Shown piece by piece: positions 1,983 through 57,803 of a DNA stretch of 64,000 nucleotides (position 1 is the stretch's first letter; each line of letters opens with the position of its first letter). The stretch lies in the sequence record ON528742; one strand, given 5' to 3'. Source of the DNA: Shigella phage ESh32. Made by a program: the position numbers and the translations under genes. The notes beneath the pieces were generated by a model. It saw nothing but the letters and a program-made list of their open reading frames with translations, made no database searches and was not told where the DNA came from.

Positions 1983-2546
1983 ATGAGCTTATTTGAAGAT
2001 GATATTCAATTAAACGAGCATCAAATTGCTTGGTATTCAAAAGATTGGACAGCTGTCCAATCCGCTGCTGATTCTTTTAAAGAAAAAGCTGAAAATGAGT
2101 TTTTTGAAATAATTGGAGCTATTAATAATAAAACTAAATGCTCTATTGCTCAAAAAGATTATTCAAAATTCATGGTTGAAAATGCATTATCACAATTTCC
2201 AGAGTGCATGCCAGCTGTATATGCTATGAATTTAATTGGATCAGGCTTAAGTGATGAAGCTCATTTTAATTATCTAATGGCTGCAGTTCCTCGTGGTAAA
2301 AGATATGGTAAATGGGCAAAACTAGTTGAAGATTCCACCGAAGTATTGATTATTAAGTTACTTGCTAAGCGGTATCAAGTTAATACAAATGATGCAATTA
2401 ACTATAAATCAATTCTTACTAAAAATGGAAAACTACCTTTAGTATTAAAAGAACTTAAAGGATTAGTCACGGATGATTTTTTGAAAGAAGTGACTAAGAA
2501 CGTAAAAGAACAGAAACAACTCAAAAAACTAGCATTGGAATGGTAA
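1983..2546 (+). CDS. 62: clamp loader small subunit gp62
   Basis: 187 aa; start overlaps gp44 stop; synteny. Confidence 0.88.
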
Positions 2547-2547
2547 A

Positions 2548-2916
2548 ATGATTGAAATTACTCTTAAAAAACCTGAAGATTTTCTGAAAGTAAAAGAAAC
2601 TTTGACTCGTATGGGAATTGCTAATAATAAAGATAAAGTTCTGTATCAGTCCTGTCATATTCTTCAGAAAAAAGGACTATACTATATCGTTCATTTTAAA
2701 GAAATGCTTCGTATGGATGGCCGTCAAGTTGAAATGACAGAAGAAGATGAAGTTCGTCGTGATTCAATTGCATGGCTATTAGAAGATTGGGGACTGATTG
2801 AAATCGTCCCTGGTCAAAGAACTTTTATGAAAGATTTAACTAATAACTTCCGAGTTATTTCTTTTAAACAAAAACATGAATGGAAACTCGTTCCTAAATA
2901 TACGATTGGTAATTAA
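2548..2916 (+). CDS. regA: translational repressor RegA
   Basis: 122 aa; position between 62 and 43. Confidence 0.88.
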   Translation: MIEITLKKPEDFLKVKETLTRMGIANNKDKVLYQSCHILQKKGLYYIVHFKEMLRMDGRQVEMTEEDEVRRDSIAWLLEDWGLIEIVPGQRTFMKDLTNNFRVISFKQKHEWKLVPKYTIGN

Positions 2917-2926
2917 GGTAAATTAT

Positions 2927-3163
2927 ATGACACAATCAGAGATTCAGTTTACCGAAGCTTTTCTAATATTCGAAAATCTAAAACAAGCATATGGTCTGTC
3001 TTCTACTCAACTGGTTTTTGACCTCCCGGAAGATAAACAAATAGAATTCCAAAAAGAATTCCAACGATTAGTTTACCCACGCCAACGCGCATTTCATGCG
3101 ATTATCAAAACCACAAATAAAGATGGCAAGTCCGTTATATCGCGTCGTACAATAGAAATTTAA
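2927..3163 (+). CDS. hypothetical small protein (78 aa) between regA and 43
   Basis: ORF with ATG, followed by hairpin. Confidence 0.5.
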   Translation: MTQSEIQFTEAFLIFENLKQAYGLSSTQLVFDLPEDKQIEFQKEFQRLVYPRQRAFHAIIKTTNKDGKSVISRRTIEI

Positions 3164-12089: not shown

Positions 12090-12383
12090 ATGAAAAAATT
12101 TGTTTTTGCTGCAATTTTTGCTTTAGCTTCTTGTGCTGCTCAGCCTGCTATGGCAGGTTATGATAAAGATTTGTGTGAATGGTCTATGACTGCGGATCAG
12201 ACTGAAGTTGAAACTCAGATTGAAGCAGATATTATGAATATCGTTGAGCGTGATCGCCCTGAAATGAAAGCTGAAGTACAAAAACAGCTTAAGTCTGGTG
12301 GTGTAATGCAGTATAATTATGTTTTGTATTGCGATAAAAACTTTAATAACAAAAATATCGTAACTGAAATCACAGGTGAATAA
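12090..12383 (+). CDS. sp: Spackle (periplasmic inhibitor of gp5 lysozyme)
   Basis: 97 aa with signal peptide; synteny. Confidence 0.8.
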   Translation: MKKFVFAAIFALASCAAQPAMAGYDKDLCEWSMTADQTEVETQIEADIMNIVERDRPEMKAEVQKQLKSGGVMQYNYVLYCDKNFNNKNIVTEITGE

Positions 12384-12384
12384 T

Positions 12385-13017
12385 ATGATTTATTATATGC
12401 ACAAAAATCCACCGTTTAAATACGGTAAATTTCCTGATGCACAATGTTATAATATAACGCCTGATGAAAATAACCGTGGATATCTTATTGGCACAATTTT
12501 TGTAATTGTTAAAGATAACGAAATCGTTGCCTGGGCAGATTTTAAAGGTACAACACATGATGTTAATCCGGTGCCTTTCACATATTACAATATAATGGAT
12601 TTGGCATATGATTATAATTGGTTTAATCATGACACGTTGGCTCATATTGAAGGTGTAGGATTTGACATCTCTTATTCTAGCTACTCGTTGTGTCCTATGA
12701 GTCGGGCTCATAAAGAACCTGAATATTTTTCATTTAGGAAACGTGTAAACTTTAAACGCAACACAGAGTATGTCGGTGGAATCTTTGTTAAAGATAATCG
12801 AATTATTCGTATTAATTATCCTTTGAGCGTTAGTCAAAAAGATATTGATGTTGATTTAGATTTCACTGAAAATAATATTAATCATATTGCTTCTGTGTAT
12901 TTTGGTATCGATCACAAAATTGTAATATGTGGATATGAATTACCGTTTGAAGAACAGTCTAAAGTAAATGTTTCTATTGACGATCAAATTTTTAATGCTT
13001 TTATGAATAAAGGTTAA
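12385..13017 (+). CDS. hypothetical protein with two internal repeat units (210 aa)
   Basis: repeats of G-x-I-F-V-(V)-K-D-N; C-terminal tail IDDQIFNAFMNKG. Confidence 0.6.
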   Translation: MIYYMHKNPPFKYGKFPDAQCYNITPDENNRGYLIGTIFVIVKDNEIVAWADFKGTTHDVNPVPFTYYNIMDLAYDYNWFNHDTLAHIEGVGFDISYSSYSLCPMSRAHKEPEYFSFRKRVNFKRNTEYVGGIFVKDNRIIRINYPLSVSQKDIDVDLDFTENNINHIASVYFGIDHKIVICGYELPFEEQSKVNVSIDDQIFNAFMNKG

Positions 13018-13018
13018 T

Positions 13019-13375
13019 ATGTATAGTTCTGAATTTTCATATTTAAAAATGGAAAAAATTTCATACGATTTTATAGATGAAAAGGTTTATTATAGTTTCC
13101 ATGAACCACGTTTTAATAGTGAGGTTGGGTTTATTGTAGTAAAAGACAATTTCATTTTAAAGATATATTCGGCATTAAAGGATTTTCACTACGAAAATAT
13201 TAACCTAAAATTTGATAAAGAAAACGTTCGTAATTGTGCAGTAACAATTACAGGAAATAAAGGTACGTGTGTTATGTTATCTGATGAAATTAATGATTTG
13301 CTAAATGATGCCGAAAAGGTTGCTATTCCATCTATTGATGACCAAATTTTTAATGCTTTTATGAATAGAGGTTAA
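13019..13375 (+). CDS. hypothetical protein, single repeat unit (118 aa), paralog of preceding ORF
   Basis: same VKDN motif and near-identical C-terminal tail. Confidence 0.6.
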   Translation: MYSSEFSYLKMEKISYDFIDEKVYYSFHEPRFNSEVGFIVVKDNFILKIYSALKDFHYENINLKFDKENVRNCAVTITGNKGTCVMLSDEINDLLNDAEKVAIPSIDDQIFNAFMNRG

Positions 13376-13543: not shown

Positions 13544-14572
13544 ATGTCATCAATACCTTGGATTGATAATGAGTTTGCATATCGTGCATTAGCTCATTTA
13601 CCTAAATTCACACAAGTAAATAATAGTTCAACTTTTAAATTACGGTTTAGATGCCCTGTTTGTGGAGATTCAAAAACCGATCAGAATAAAGCTCGTGGAT
13701 GGTATTATGGTGATAATAATGAAGGAAATATTCATTGTTATAACTGTAACTATCATGCACCAATCGGAATATATTTAAAGGAGTTTGAACCCGATTTATA
13801 TCGTGAGTATATCTTTGAAATAAGAAAAGAAAAAGGTAAAAGTCGTCCAGTAGAAAAACCTAAAGAACTTCCTAAACAACCTGAGAAGAAAATAATTAAA
13901 TCTCTTCCGTCATGTGTTAGATTAGATAAACTGGCGGAAGACCATCCAATTATAAAATATGTAAAAGCTCGTTGTATTCCAAAGGATAAATGGAAATATC
14001 TTTGGTTTACAACCGAATGGCCTAAATTAGTTAATAGCATAGCACCGGGAACATACAAAAAGGAAATTTCTGAGCCTCGTCTTGTTATTCCAATTTATAA
14101 TGCTAACGGAAAAGCTGAGTCTTTTCAAGGACGTGCATTAAAGAAAGATGCTCCTCAAAAATATATCACCATTAAAGCTTATCCTGAGGCAACAAAAATT
14201 TACGGTGTTGAACGAGTTAAAGATGGTGATGTATATGTTCTAGAAGGACCTATAGATTCACTTTTTATTGAAAATGGTATAGCTATTACAGGTGGTCAAT
14301 TAGACCTAGAAGTTGTTCCATTTAAAGATAGACGAGTGTGGGTTTTAGATAATGAACCTCGTCACCCTGACACTATCAAACGAATGACTAAATTAGTTGA
14401 TGCAGGAGAAAGGGTTATGTTTTGGGATAAATCTCCCTGGAAATCAAAAGATGTCAATGATATGATTAGAAAGGAAGGTGCAACCCCTGAACAAATTATG
14501 GAATATATGAAAAATAATATTGCCCAGGGGTTAATGGCTAAAATGCGGTTATCTAAATATGCTAAGATTTAA
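13544..14572 (+). CDS. 61: DNA primase gp61
   Basis: 342 aa; zinc ribbon CPVC...CYNC; Toprim. Confidence 0.93.
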   Translation: MSSIPWIDNEFAYRALAHLPKFTQVNNSSTFKLRFRCPVCGDSKTDQNKARGWYYGDNNEGNIHCYNCNYHAPIGIYLKEFEPDLYREYIFEIRKEKGKSRPVEKPKELPKQPEKKIIKSLPSCVRLDKLAEDHPIIKYVKARCIPKDKWKYLWFTTEWPKLVNSIAPGTYKKEISEPRLVIPIYNANGKAESFQGRALKKDAPQKYITIKAYPEATKIYGVERVKDGDVYVLEGPIDSLFIENGIAITGGQLDLEVVPFKDRRVWVLDNEPRHPDTIKRMTKLVDAGERVMFWDKSPWKSKDVNDMIRKEGATPEQIMEYMKNNIAQGLMAKMRLSKYAKI

Positions 14573-14769
14573 ATCAACCCAACTAAAGCAAATGCTAAAT
14601 CTACAAATGTATCAAGAGTAACTACTGGAATATTAACACCATGCGCAATTGCAATTGGTGATAAAATAAAGTTCCAGAGTAAAATTCCTACCATAGCAGA
14701 AATAGTAAAAGCTATACGTTTCTTATTACCTTTTATGGCATTAACAAGTGCCATTAATTTTTGTACCAT
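14569..14769 (-). CDS. small two-TM membrane protein (66 aa) on late strand
   Basis: AGGAGG 4 nt upstream of ATG; AATAAATA late-promoter-like box upstream. Confidence 0.45.
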   Translation of the reverse strand: MVQKLMALVNAIKGNKKRIAFTISAMVGILLWNFILSPIAIAHGVNIPVVTLDTFVDLAFALVGLI

Positions 14770-14782
14770 ATGTCCTCCTTAT

Positions 14783-14806
14783 TGCTTTATATATTTATTG
14801 TATAAT
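14783..14806 (+). promoter_or_regulatory. putative middle promoter (MotA box TGCTTTA plus TATAAT)
   Basis: TGCTTTA 14783-14789, TATAAT 14801-14806, 11-bp spacing. Confidence 0.45.
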
Positions 14807-14840
14807 TAATCTACTAACCCATGAATTGAAAGGAAAAATA

Positions 14841-15359
14841 ATGGCTTACTTTAACGAATGTTCACAACTGATTGAAGGCGCTGATAAAGCTCAAAATGAA
14901 TATTGGGATATTCTCGGTGATGAAAAAGACCCGCTGCAGGTAATGCTCGATATGCAGAAATCTCTGCAAGTTCGTTTAGCTAAAGATAAACCTGAATATA
15001 ATCGTCATCCTGATGACTTGGCTACTGCAGGTGAAGTTGTTGATTGGTTGCGTAATCAGAAAGATTATATTGACGATGAATTCCGTGAACTTCTGACTTC
15101 TCTTGGTGGTATGAGCAATGGTGAAAAAGATGCATCTGCTGTATGGAAACCTTGGAAGTCGCAGCATGGTGAACGTCGTGAAACTCTGATTACTGATTTG
15201 TCTCCACAAGACCAATTGGAAATTAAATTTGAAATGATTGATATTCTCCATTTCGTTCTGAACATGTTCCAAGGTCTTGGTCTTACAGCAGAAGAAATCT
15301 TTAAACTTTATTATCTAAAAAATGCCGAAAACTTTGCTCGTCAAGACCGAGGTTATTAA
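14841..15359 (+). CDS. 56: dCTPase/dUTPase gp56
   Basis: 172 aa from MAYFNE; MazG-like; synteny. Confidence 0.85.
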   Translation: MAYFNECSQLIEGADKAQNEYWDILGDEKDPLQVMLDMQKSLQVRLAKDKPEYNRHPDDLATAGEVVDWLRNQKDYIDDEFRELLTSLGGMSNGEKDASAVWKPWKSQHGERRETLITDLSPQDQLEIKFEMIDILHFVLNMFQGLGLTAEEIFKLYYLKNAENFARQDRGY

Positions 15360-15389: not shown

Positions 15390-15397
15390 TATAAATA
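15390..15397 (+). promoter_or_regulatory. late promoter TATAAATA
   Basis: exact TATAAATA 30 nt upstream of soc ATG. Confidence 0.65.
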
Positions 15398-15427: not shown

Positions 15428-15673
15428 ATGGCTAGTACTCGCGGTTATGTTAATATCAAAACATTTGAGCAGAAATTAGATGGAAATAAGAAAATTGAAG
15501 GAAAGGAAATTTCAGTAGCTTTCCCTCTTTATTCTGACGTTCACAAAATTTCTGGCGCTCATTACCAGACATTCCCTTCAGAAAAAGCAGCATATACTAC
15601 TGTATATGAAGAAAATCAACGTGCTGCATGGATTGCTGCAAATGAAGATTTGTGGAAAGTAACTGGTGAATAA
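15428..15673 (+). CDS. soc: small outer capsid protein Soc
   Basis: 81 aa, recognised sequence. Confidence 0.9.
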   Translation: MASTRGYVNIKTFEQKLDGNKKIEGKEISVAFPLYSDVHKISGAHYQTFPSEKAAYTTVYEENQRAAWIAANEDLWKVTGE

Positions 15674-15679
15674 ATTCAA

Positions 15680-15703
15680 GGACTCCTTCGGGAGTCCTTT
15701 TTT
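15680..15703 (+). terminator. intrinsic terminator GGACTCC-TTCG-GGAGTCC plus T6
   Basis: perfect 7-bp stem, TTCG loop, T-run. Confidence 0.8.
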
Positions 15704-15981: not shown

Positions 15982-16313
15982 TGTTTATCTTTAATTGGTT
16001 TAAAAGTTTCTTTACGGATTTTTTCTCTACGACTCCTGGAGAAGGTGTAGTTCCTATTTCAAATGACTATCTTCCTTTAACTGTAGTTGAATATGTTTAT
16101 ATGGGAGATGGAACAGTAGAAGCAGTTACTATGACTTATGAAGAAGCCCAAGAATATTATAAAAATCCTTGGCGCTGGTCAGTACCTACTACATCATCTA
16201 ACGCGCAGTCTAGTTCTGATTCATATGACACTAATGTTCCTGTTCATGTATGGGCGGGTGATTCATGTGGAAGTTCTTGTGATTCTAGTTGTTCATCTAC
16301 ATCTTGCGATTGA
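15981..16313 (+). CDS. hypothetical protein with Cys/Ser-rich C-terminal tail (110 aa)
   Basis: C-terminus [16 protein letters not shown]. Confidence 0.55.
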
Positions 16314-16321
16314 GGAAAATT

Positions 16322-16807
16322 ATGGAAGCAATTTTGTTTGAAATGTATATTAGCAGTAATAGTATGTCGTTTGCTAAAGACGTTCCAATTACCGTAGCAG
16401 TAATGATTGATAAGGGTTATTGTGACCCAATGTATCTCGTAGAAAATTTCGTTTCAATGCCAGTTCCAGAAGATGCTGAAATAAAACTTAAAAAGATCGG
16501 AATTATTGAAACTGTACCAAATATTCCATTTAGAGCAATTGAAGCATTTACTAAATCCGAATACATTAATGTTAGCGCAGAACAATATAATGATAAACCC
16601 TTATCTTTTTATTCGTACGATTCAATATATAACTGGAAAATAGATAAAGGAAACAAATTTATAATTGCGAGTGAAGATGCGTTATCATACTTTATTTCTT
16701 CTGTATGGAATAGTTTACATCCAAATTTGCTAAAAATTCATGAATTTGACGGTGTCCATACTATTGTTTTAGGTAAAATAAATGAAAGCTCTCAAGAAGA
16801 TTCTTGA
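16322..16807 (+). CDS. hypothetical protein (161 aa; mrh-like by position and size)
   Basis: GAGGAAAATT-ATG. Confidence 0.55.
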
Positions 16808-17617: not shown

Positions 17618-17800
17618 ATGGATTTATTTGAGATGTTAGAAGATAATCATTCTACGAATATCCAGAATGATTCTAGTGATTATAAGAAAGAATACCGTAT
17701 AGTATTACAGAATTATGGAATTGAAGCCCCAGATGCTCTTCTAGAAGAACTAGCTTCATACCATCTTGACCCTCCGCCTTGGGCTCCCTGGGCAAAATAA
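17618..17800 (+). CDS. hypothetical protein (60 aa)
   Basis: ORF. Confidence 0.45.
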   Translation: MDLFEMLEDNHSTNIQNDSSDYKKEYRIVLQNYGIEAPDALLEELASYHLDPPPWAPWAK

Positions 17801-17811
17801 TTCAAAAAGTT

Positions 17812-17841
17812 GTTTACTTTCCTTTCTAACGATGATATGAT
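17812..17841 (+). promoter_or_regulatory. early promoter (GTTTAC, 18 bp, TATGAT)
   Basis: consensus hexamers. Confidence 0.55.
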
Positions 17842-17867
17842 AGCTTCTGAAGTATACGGAGGCTATC

Positions 17868-18491
17868 ATGATTATTAATCCTGCAGATGTTGAACAGTTA
17901 TCTATAAAAGCTGAAAGCGTTGATTTTCAATATGATATGTATAAAAAAGTCTGTGAAAAATTTACTGACTTTGAGCAGTCTGTTCTTTGGCAATGTATGG
18001 AAGCCAAAAAGAATGAAGCTCTTCATCGGCAATTGAATAAAATCATTAAAAAGCATTTAACTAAATCACCTTATCAGTTATATCGCGGTATATCAAAATC
18101 GACAAAAGAACTTATTAAAGATTTACAAGTTGGAGAAGTGTTTTCAACGAACAGGGTAGATTCATTTACTACTAGTTTGCACACAGCATGTTCTTTTTCT
18201 TATGCTGAATATTTCACTGAAACAATACTTCGTTTAAAAACTGATAAAGCTTTTAATTACTCTGACCATATCAGCGATATTATACTTTCTTCTCCTAATA
18301 CTGAGTTTAAGTATACATATGAAGATACTGATGGGCTAGATTCAGAGCGTACTGATAACTTAATGATGATTGTGCATGAACAAGAATGGATGATTCCAAT
18401 TGGAAAGTATAGAATAACTTCTATTTCAAAAGAAAAATTACACGATTCATTTGGAACATTTAAAGTTTATGATATTGAGGTAGTTGAATGA
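17868..18491 (+). CDS. modB: ADP-ribosyltransferase ModB-like (207 aa)
   Basis: R-S-ExE motifs: YRGI, STN, EQEWMIP. Confidence 0.7.
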   Translation: MIINPADVEQLSIKAESVDFQYDMYKKVCEKFTDFEQSVLWQCMEAKKNEALHRQLNKIIKKHLTKSPYQLYRGISKSTKELIKDLQVGEVFSTNRVDSFTTSLHTACSFSYAEYFTETILRLKTDKAFNYSDHISDIILSSPNTEFKYTYEDTDGLDSERTDNLMMIVHEQEWMIPIGKYRITSISKEKLHDSFGTFKVYDIEVVE

Positions 18492-39522: not shown

Positions 39523-39552
39523 AGACCCTCCTTTTAAGGATATTTATTCAAA

Positions 39553-56787: not shown

Positions 56788-57803
56788 TAATTGAGGCCTG
56801 AGTATAAGGTGACTTATACTTGTAATCTATCTAAACGGGGAACCTCTCTAGTAGACAATCCCGTGCTAAATTGTAGGACTGCCCTTTAATAAATACTTCT
56901 ATATTTAAAGAGGTATTTATGAAAAGCGGAATTTATCAGATTAAAAATACTTTAAACAATAAAGTATATGTAGGAAGTGCTAAAGATTTTGAAAAGAGAT
57001 GGAAGAGGCATTTTAAAGATTTAGAAAAAGGATGCCATTCTTCTATAAAACTTCAGAGGTCTTTTAACAAACATGGTAATGTGTTTGAATGTTCTATTTT
57101 GGAAGAAATTCCATATGAGAAAGATTTGATTATTGAACGAGAAAATTTTTGGATTAAAGAGCTTAATTCTAAAATTAATGGATACAATATTGCTGATGCA
57201 ACGTTTGGTGATACATGTTCTACGCATCCATTAAAAGAAGAAATTATTAAAAAACGTTCTGAAACTGTTAAAGCTAAGATGCTTAAACTTGGACCTGATG
57301 GTCGGAAAGCTCTTTACAGTAAACCCGGAAGTAAAAACGGGCGTTGGAATCCAGAAACCCATAAGTTTTGTAAGTGCGGTGTTCGCATACAAACTTCTGC
57401 TTATACTTGTAGTAAATGCAGAAATCGTTCAGGTGAAAATAATTCATTCTTTAATCATAAGCATTCAGACATAACTAAATCTAAAATATCAGAAAAGATG
57501 AAAGGTAAAAAGCCTAGTAATATTAAAAAGATTTCATGTGATGGGGTTATTTTTGATTGTGCAGCAGATGCAGCTAGACATTTTAAAATTTCGTCTGGAT
57601 TAGTTACTTATCGTGTAAAATCTGATAAATGGAATTGGTTCTACATAAATGCCTAACGACTATCCCTTTGGGGAGTAGGGTCAAGTGACTCGAAACGATA
57701 GACAACTTGCTTTAACAAGTTGGAGATATAGTCTGATCTGCATGGTGACATGCAGCTGGATATAATTCCGGGGTAAGATTAACGACCTTATCTGAACATA
57801 ATG
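56788..57803 (+). mobile_element. group I self-splicing intron (td intron, 1016 nt) carrying I-TevI
   Basis: 5' and 3' intron ends match the remembered T4 td intron; interrupts TS reading frame. Confidence 0.9.
56919..57656 (+). CDS. I-TevI: homing endonuclease I-TevI (GIY-YIG)
   Basis: 245 aa; GIYQIKN...VYVGSA motif; inside td intron. Confidence 0.93.
   Translation: MKSGIYQIKNTLNNKVYVGSAKDFEKRWKRHFKDLEKGCHSSIKLQRSFNKHGNVFECSILEEIPYEKDLIIERENFWIKELNSKINGYNIADATFGDTCSTHPLKEEIIKKRSETVKAKMLKLGPDGRKALYSKPGSKNGRWNPETHKFCKCGVRIQTSAYTCSKCRNRSGENNSFFNHKHSDITKSKISEKMKGKKPSNIKKISCDGVIFDCAADAARHFKISSGLVTYRVKSDKWNWFYINA

Follow-up and report, generated by a model that had tools for sequence, protein, structure and literature searches.

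A closely related described system is the 61-dam-56-segF-soc region of phage T4 (NC_000866, 15.3-19.0 kb), in which genes 61 and dam lie 309 bp apart and the gap between them carries no annotation. To compare this region with its counterpart here, we used the window, that is, the whole 64-kb stretch of Shigella phage ESh32 DNA that was analysed (record ON528742). The window belongs to Tequatrovirus. Its locus was 98.6% identical to that of Salmonella phage Jbel and 97.8% identical to that of AR1, and AR1 was also the closest match over 24 kb in the phage collection, with ~96% identity. As shown in Table 1, genes 61, 56 and soc have the same order and orientation as in T4, a homologous MotA-type promoter precedes gene 56, and a micro-ORF next to the primase gene is common to both phages, whereas the ~0.9-kb dam cassette and segF of T4 are missing from the window. 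The gene 56 allele also differs: the gp56 of the window showed 99% identity to the gp56 of AR1 and Lutter, and only 73% to that of T4. The micro-gene and the primase gene are convergent, and their stop codons overlap within TTAA.

Table 1. Features of the primase-soc region of the window, and upstream contexts of the micro-gene in four groups of phages.
Feature	Position	Strand	Evidence or detail
DNA primase, T4 gene 61	13544..14572	+	342-aa ORF; phrog_47, E = 1.1e-106; ~99% identity to T4 gp61
Micro-gene, 66-aa membrane protein (phrog_2024 = RB32ORF030w = ar1_033)	14569..14769	-	ORF list, PHROG match
Terminator-like hairpin, early strand, within micro-gene codons 6-11, followed by TAATTTTTGT	14735..14754	+	RNA fold -8.9 kcal/mol, z = -2.2
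Shine-Dalgarno AGGAGG	14774..14779	-	sequence reading; 4 nt before ATG
MotA-type middle promoter of gene 56, TGCTTTA-N11-TATAAT	14783..14806	+	pattern found 12 times in the window vs 2.3 expected
Late-promoter-like box AATAAATA	14792..14799	-	7/8 match to TATAAATA; ends 22 nt before ATG
Gene 56 (dCTPase/dUTPase), non-T4 allele	14841..15359	+	phrog_173, E = 1.5e-46
Canonical late box TATAAATA, upstream of soc	15390..15397	+	sequence reading
soc (small outer capsid protein)	15428..15673	+	phrog_1715, E = 1.5e-42
Two-way terminator hairpin 3' of soc	15678..15699	none	9-bp stem, 5 GC pairs, flagged on both strands
Upstream context, dam-less Tequatrovirus			box AATAAATA; cAATAAATA...AAGGAGG
Upstream context, dam+ Tequatrovirus			box GATAAATA; gGATAAATA...AAGGAGG
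Upstream context, Mosigvirus			box AATAAATA; tAATAAATA...AAGGAG
Upstream context, Gaprivervirus			box CATAAATA; gCATAAATA...AGGAGG

The first-pass annotation of this DNA had stated that neither dam nor segF is present. This was borne out for the locus and for the entire 64-kb window by tblastn with T4 Dam (best E = 2.0) and T4 SegF (best E = 3.4). The primase-56 gap, put at about 270 bp, measured 268 bp, and the spacing of 68 bp between gene 56 and soc was correct; since soc starts 68 bp after gene 56, segF is not there. A Dam homolog elsewhere in the genome was sought in AR1 (1-145 kb) as a proxy, the window matching the remaining AR1 sequence, and none was found (best E = 0.87), a result that concerns homologs of Dam and not methyltransferases of other families. 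The same annotation had treated the dam-less state as unusual, which it is not. T4-type dam was present in 184 phage records (megablast) and the micro-ORF, at no less than 90% identity, in 502 Tequatrovirus-level records (tblastn), so the dam-less state is the commoner one in Tequatrovirus; Mosigvirus, Gaprivervirus, and Gelderlandvirus are likewise arranged without dam. Among the 17 loci that were compared, the window included, dam was present in four and missing from 13, while all 17 carried the micro-ORF, and the dam-less genera kept the order primase, ORF, 56, soc. These results indicated that the dam and segF cassettes are variable additions that the window, like most of its relatives, lacks, and that their absence is an ordinary gene-content polymorphism of Tequatrovirus rather than an anomaly.

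The micro-ORF had been described as lying where T4 has dam, in a gap that holds it instead of the methyltransferase gene. The T4 sequence contradicts this, because T4 keeps both. Its 61-dam gap carries the micro-ORF at 17738-17938 (+, late strand), with equal length and 2 aa differences, and with AGGAGG and GATAAATA upstream. The ORF is unannotated in AF158101.6 and NC_000866.4, and it is included in the recently annotated T4 record OZ209023.1, where it is labelled phrog 2024. T2, which the first-pass annotation had named for comparison, also holds the micro-ORF, unannotated, and every dam+ relative examined carries it between the primase gene and dam. In Lutter, the gene order is primase, micro-ORF, a 186-aa ORF, dam, and gene 56, and the annotators of this phage labelled the 8-bp GATAAATA as a promoter.

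To evaluate the conservation of the micro-gene, the product was compared with protein families and with phage records. It matched phrog_2024 over the full length (E = 1.5e-31; residues 2-66 on profile positions 1-65 of 65). The ORF was detected by tblastn in 692 phage records and was intact or nearly full length in 686 of them, and the protein was 100% identical in NBEco003, ESh31, REP2, and other records. The matches fell into two identity bands, one of at least 90% in Tequatrovirus and one of ~44-56% in Mosigvirus (ST0) and Gaprivervirus (DK-13, TH40). More distant members with 27-30% identity, gp16.1 of S16 (Gelderlandvirus, 69 aa) and KpV477_031 (Jiaodavirus, 63 aa), were located through the primase neighbourhoods of other genera. 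The homologs from all four of these other genera (27-56% identity) matched phrog_2024, and the family thus covers five genera of Tevenvirinae: Tequatrovirus, Mosigvirus, Gaprivervirus, Gelderlandvirus, and Jiaodavirus. The position was kept as well. In 17/17 loci, and in S16 and KpV477, the gene converges on the primase gene and/or diverges from gene 56 or dam; in DK-13, the micro-ORF and the primase gene are separated by a homing endonuclease gene. The pairwise dN/dS was about 0.1-0.55, well below 1 in most pairs, and the variable columns were dominated by the third codon position (45/21/56 for the three positions). W32, N33, P38, G44, P48, and G64 were invariant across the five genera, and position 53 was always Asp or Glu. 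These results indicated that the micro-ORF is a real gene that has stayed intact under purifying selection in all five genera. It belongs to an already catalogued hypothetical family and is not new. Taken as a whole, the locus is best explained, with a probability of roughly 0.72, as a 268-bp interval that holds an ordinary conserved Tevenvirinae gene (phrog_2024) and no stand-in for dam.

The micro-gene is not universal among T4-like phages, since it is missing from this position in three further genera. A + strand ORF takes its place in Karamvirus EnA02, an HNH-AP2 endonuclease ORF that is not annotated does so in Krischvirus KFS-EC, and no small opposite-strand ORF was present at this position in Slopekvirus pR7_1. 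No paralogs were detected in the window or in AR1. The searches for a functional relative gave little: there was no match to Pfam or NCBIfam even at E <= 10, and HMMER against 1.84 billion representatives returned only T4-like relatives of 61-66 aa, plus spurious repeat proteins such as P0032. A profile search that included the distant members retrieved 84 proteins, none of which bore a functional name except for one labelled 'Holin'. Moreover, Foldseek against BFVD returned no informative neighbour, the matches being family members and two weak 63-aa proteins, one of them from phage CIP9.

The first-pass annotation had counted two transmembrane segments in the product, which is probably wrong. 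In an AF2 model built from a 13-sequence alignment (mean pLDDT 81.5), helices were predicted at residues 2-12, 16-42, and 52-63, with a loop at 43-51, and only residues about 19-42 behaved as a membrane helix. The Hessa sum of residues 19-37 was about 0.4, and -2.4 in Gaprivervirus, while the C-terminal 19-20 residues scored about +5 to +9 kcal/mol on the same scale, with sums of +6.5 to +9.1 for the 19-mers of the micro-protein, and the predicted helix at 52-63 has only 12 residues. The C-terminal segment of S16 and KpV477 is short, with 17-18 proline-rich residues containing PP-x-P-L-D/E-K; it reads LPPIPLDKVIHFIMLGGF in S16 and LPPMPLEKVVSFIMTGGLL in KpV477, and neither could span a bilayer. 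The tail motif HG-x3-P-x3-L-(D/E) was conserved. By the positive-inside rule, the positively charged flank of a membrane helix stays inside. The N-terminus of the micro-protein has a net charge of +5, and the single-pass topology with the N-terminus in and the C-terminus out is therefore the likeliest. Most likely, to judge from the model and the sequence, the micro-protein has one membrane helix, its N-terminus inside, and a short conserved tail outside. The product would thus enter the inner membrane in a single pass, with the helix at ~19-42 and a tail of ~24 residues outside. A helical hairpin with two transmembrane segments is possible for the Tequatrovirus form, whose C-terminal segment the Kyte-Doolittle scale rates as hydrophobic.

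The expression signals of the micro-gene were then compared across the genera. The 66-aa opposite-strand ORF, the AGGAGG, and the AATAAATA box were all present as first described, and the minus strand upstream of the ORF reads cAATAAATAtataaagcaatAAGGAGGacatATG. The same AATAAATA variant occurs before I-TevI (56888-56895, +), as had been pointed out, and it also precedes holin t (39541-39548, -), with a spacing to the start codon similar to those of the micro-ORF and I-TevI. The window contains fewer copies of ATAAATA than expected, 14 compared to 38.5 ± 5.7, which makes it unlikely that one would stand by chance 22 nt ahead of a strong ribosome site and an ATG. Seven of the 14 copies are followed by a ribosome site and by an ORF of at least 40 codons with its start codon. 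These seven include the copies before soc, holin t, I-TevI, and a tail-fibre ORF of 1289 codons, which we take from its size to be gene 34. The ATAAATA box and the ribosome site recur upstream of the micro-gene in four different contexts (Table 1). In addition, KpV477 has AATAAATA too, and TAAATA alone is kept in Gelderlandvirus S16. AGGAGG was kept in the Tequatrovirus, Gaprivervirus, Gelderlandvirus, and Jiaodavirus loci, and the Mosigvirus sequence is AAGGAG. From these signals, late transcription is most likely the mode of expression of the micro-gene. RNA polymerase with gp55 would transcribe it late from the AATAAATA box, with a putative start near 14786, and the strong ribosome site would allow its translation. 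In the literature searched, including that on T4 ribosome profiling and small proteins, we found no transcript, ribosome-profiling, or proteomic evidence for the micro-ORF. A dRNA-seq study of T4 reports 150 T4 start sites (10.1101/2024.04.04.588121).

The promoter region of the micro-gene is overlapped by the + strand MotA-type box and TATAAT of gene 56, in agreement with the first-pass annotation. The gene 56 promoter of the window aligned with the sequences upstream of gene 56 in T4, Lutter, ST0, and DK-13, and the transcript from the T4 counterpart is named the oriA primer in the T4 record. When dam is absent, the late box (AATAAATA in the window) falls within the spacer of the gene 56 promoter, which is divergent from it. 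In T4, by comparison, the dam cassette of ~0.9 kb stands between the two promoters, the late box (GATAAATA) is on the dam-proximal side, and none occurs in the spacer of the T4 gene 56 promoter. Both arrangements thus retain a late-type box. The terminator-like hairpin stretch inside the micro-gene is identical in T4. The search for terminators found none that separates the micro-ORF from the primase gene in the window, because the stop codons overlap.

As there is neither a Pfam or NCBIfam family nor an informative structural neighbour, the function proposed here is drawn from sequence anatomy. Membrane helices are classically driven to associate with one another by a mid-helix Asn that has a Trp beside it. 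The invariant mid-helix Trp-Asn of the micro-protein therefore suggests a small membrane modulator that late in infection would associate either with further copies of itself or with a partner. Speculatively, this pair may drive the association of the helix with another copy or with a membrane partner from the phage or the host, and the protein, as a small modulator of membrane proteins, may act at the envelope in the late phase and perhaps affect lysis timing or superinfection. In its full form, the proposal is that the micro-gene is a strongly conserved late gene of T-even phages, T4 included although unannotated there, which encodes a single-pass protein whose Trp-Asn pair and periplasmic tail would tune a membrane partner and thereby affect lysis timing, lysis inhibition, or superinfection. 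We regard this as tentative, with the odds rather against it in such detail. Such a partner might be a protein of the host envelope or the holin-antiholin system.

A related possibility is that the micro-protein is itself holin-like, antiholin-like, or an accessory of lysis timing, the build-up of which in the inner membrane would shift the firing of the T holin or lysis inhibition. The protein is small and membrane-embedded, its signals are of the late type, and the AATAAATA promoter variant is common to the micro-gene and holin t. At least one membrane helix, as a holin should have, is present (~19-42), and one 63-aa family member in UniProt bears the name 'Holin', which was perhaps assigned automatically. 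However, the charged hydrophilic C-terminal domain is lacking: the C-terminus is hydrophobic (...LAFALVGLI) and the charged region is N-terminal. The gene is not adjacent to endolysin, spanin, t, rI, or rIII, its neighbours being the primase gene and gene 56, and in AR1 e, t, rI, and pseT.2/.3 are located away from it. Moreover, no holin family matched in Pfam, NCBIfam, or PHROGs, and the holin matches in BFVD all had E > 7. A holin-type role is thus improbable.

Alternatively, the late RNA or the promoter itself could be the functional element, and the peptide incidental. The RNA would run antisense into the primase gene, or late transcription would occlude the middle promoter of gene 56, from which the oriA primer is made, and the affected genes would be shut off late. 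In the window, the late box does lie in the gene 56 promoter spacer, which is consistent with this, as is the lack of a terminator before the primase gene in the window. On the other hand, selection acts at the protein level, with residues invariant across five genera, and in dam+ phages the late box is ~900 bp from the gene 56 promoter. Furthermore, hairpins part the ORF from the primase gene in Gaprivervirus (14-bp stem) and Jiaodavirus, and in DK-13 a whole endonuclease gene does so. These differences make a function at the RNA or promoter level very unlikely.

The first-pass reading was that dam had been swapped or lost and a late gene with two transmembrane segments gained in its slot. 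It agrees with the lack of dam and segF both at the locus and in the window, and with the existence of the micro-ORF and its signals. But T4, T2, Lutter, and two dam+ loci from IMG/VR hold the micro-ORF beside dam, the dam-less genera share one gene order, and the second transmembrane helix is unsupported, which leaves this reading scarcely credible. The wording 'instead of dam' is ruled out by the T4 sequence itself. Finally, that the micro-ORF is an unexpressed chance frame in an AT-rich spacer can practically be dismissed, for although it is short and unannotated in the T4 reference, it is intact in 686/692 records, it varies mainly at third positions with dN/dS mostly well below 1, its ribosome site and ATAAATA box are conserved, and its position is kept in homologs down to 27% identity.

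An ordinary conserved gene beside the primase gene is thus the preferred reading, and its main effect is to correct the record: the absence of dam and segF is routine, and the small ORF had already been catalogued. A gene with late-gene signals and with conservation in five genera is left out of AF158101 and NC_000866. As a consequence of this omission, transcriptomics, proteomics, and knockout or knockdown libraries that use the T4 reference annotation miss the micro-gene. Since the gene is short, overlaps its neighbour in the stop codon only, and is found in the best-studied phage, its function can be tested cheaply.

Three kinds of known proteins can be compared with the micro-protein. Phage holins of class II/III and the T4 antiholin RI are likewise small late membrane proteins of lytic phages, and the promoter variant is that of holin t, whereas the micro-protein differs from them in its C-terminal domain, its distance from a lysis cassette, and its family assignment. 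MgrB and AcrZ, which are small single-pass membrane-protein modulators in bacteria, resemble it in their size of fewer than 70 aa, in their single membrane helix, and in a short extracytoplasmic tail that is conserved, and MgrB-like proteins share the predicted N-in/C-out topology. Unlike MgrB and AcrZ, to which it has no sequence or detectable fold relationship, the micro-gene is phage-encoded with late-type signals, so that the likeness would be an analogy of mechanism. The phrog_2024 family, with RB32ORF030w, ar1_033 of AR1, and gp16.1 of S16, consists of hypothetical proteins and is missing from the T4 reference annotation; the gene of the window is like its members in position and orientation beside the primase gene and shows no structural difference from them.

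Mobile endonuclease genes gather at the primase-gene 56 locus, making it a hot spot for them: the DK-13 locus contains a homing endonuclease gene, and a SegF homolog was found in one Gaprivervirus-like contig. The unannotated ORF between primase and gene 56 in KFS-EC, which carries HNH_3 and AP2 domains, is probably a free-standing homing endonuclease. The coordinates are collected in the table below.

Features of the primase-gene 56 locus and its surroundings
Feature	Genome or locus	Coordinates	Strand	Remarks
Gene 56 (allele comparison)	window; L003, L008, L011	14841-15359 (window)		
61.2-like ORF, 213 aa	window	12376-13017	+	5' of primase
Extra ORF, 118 aa	window	13019-13375	+	5' of primase, adjoins 61.2-like ORF
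Terminator-like hairpin ATGGCATTAACAAGTGCCAT, then TAATTTTTGT	window	14735-14754	+ (early strand)	within 5' end of micro-gene
186-aa ORF (phrog_8706)	phage Lutter (L002), MT682714	2870-3430		abuts and overlaps dam
187-aa ORF, unannotated	Krischvirus KFS-EC (L020), NC_055757	2544-3107		between primase and gene 56; HNH_3 (E = 9e-14) and AP2
Homing endonuclease gene	DK-13 (L006)	2372-3121		between micro-gene and primase
SegF homolog, 65% identity	Gaprivervirus-like contig (L012)	1742-2404		3' of gene 56
GC-rich hairpin	KpV477 (L019, Jiaodavirus)	about 2527-2544		separates converging micro-gene and primase
14-bp-stem hairpin	TH40 (L005, Gaprivervirus)	2252-2283		separates converging micro-gene and primase

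Gene 56 occurred as two alleles, whose proteins were about 72% identical. The window, AR1 and Lutter shared one allele, T4 carried the other together with segF, and two IMG/VR loci had the T4-like allele without segF. Marker exclusion linked to SegF is a known phenomenon, and the two-allele pattern is consistent with it.

Many records of dam-positive phages list a hypothetical protein beside dam. When the corresponding 186-aa ORF of Lutter was compared with Pfam, the sole matches were to the DpnII restriction endonuclease, and these were sub-threshold (E = 0.0045; the cutoff is 23 bits and the score was 16.8). Since GATC is both the DpnII cleavage site and the Dam site, the dam cassette may be what is left of a restriction-modification module specific for GATC. 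The T4 dam locus is too tight for this ORF, in contrast to that of Lutter. Judged by spacing, T2 probably also has such an ORF beside dam (LC348380, about 15993-16641). Window positions 1-64000 contained 70 GATC sites compared to 208 expected from base composition, an approximately threefold under-representation, and no dam was found in this 64-kb stretch.

The late-promoter core ATAAATA was strongly depleted over positions 1-64000, with 14 copies compared to 38.5 ± 5.7 in shuffled sequences; half of these copies were located directly 5' of a ribosome site and start codon. Upstream of primase, the C-terminal peptides of the 61.2-like ORF (SIDDQIFNAFMNKG) and the 118-aa ORF (SIDDQIFNAFMNRG) are almost identical, which suggests a partial duplication.

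The early-strand hairpin within the micro-gene (the 66-aa membrane-protein ORF) had a folding energy of -8.9 kcal/mol (z = -2.2), and its sequence was identical in T4. Its role might be to attenuate transcription that continues past the primase operon towards gene 56 or dam. In the Jiaodavirus and Gaprivervirus loci, other hairpins lie between the micro-gene and primase, which converge, whereas in Tequatrovirus and Mosigvirus the stop codons of the two genes overlap without a hairpin.
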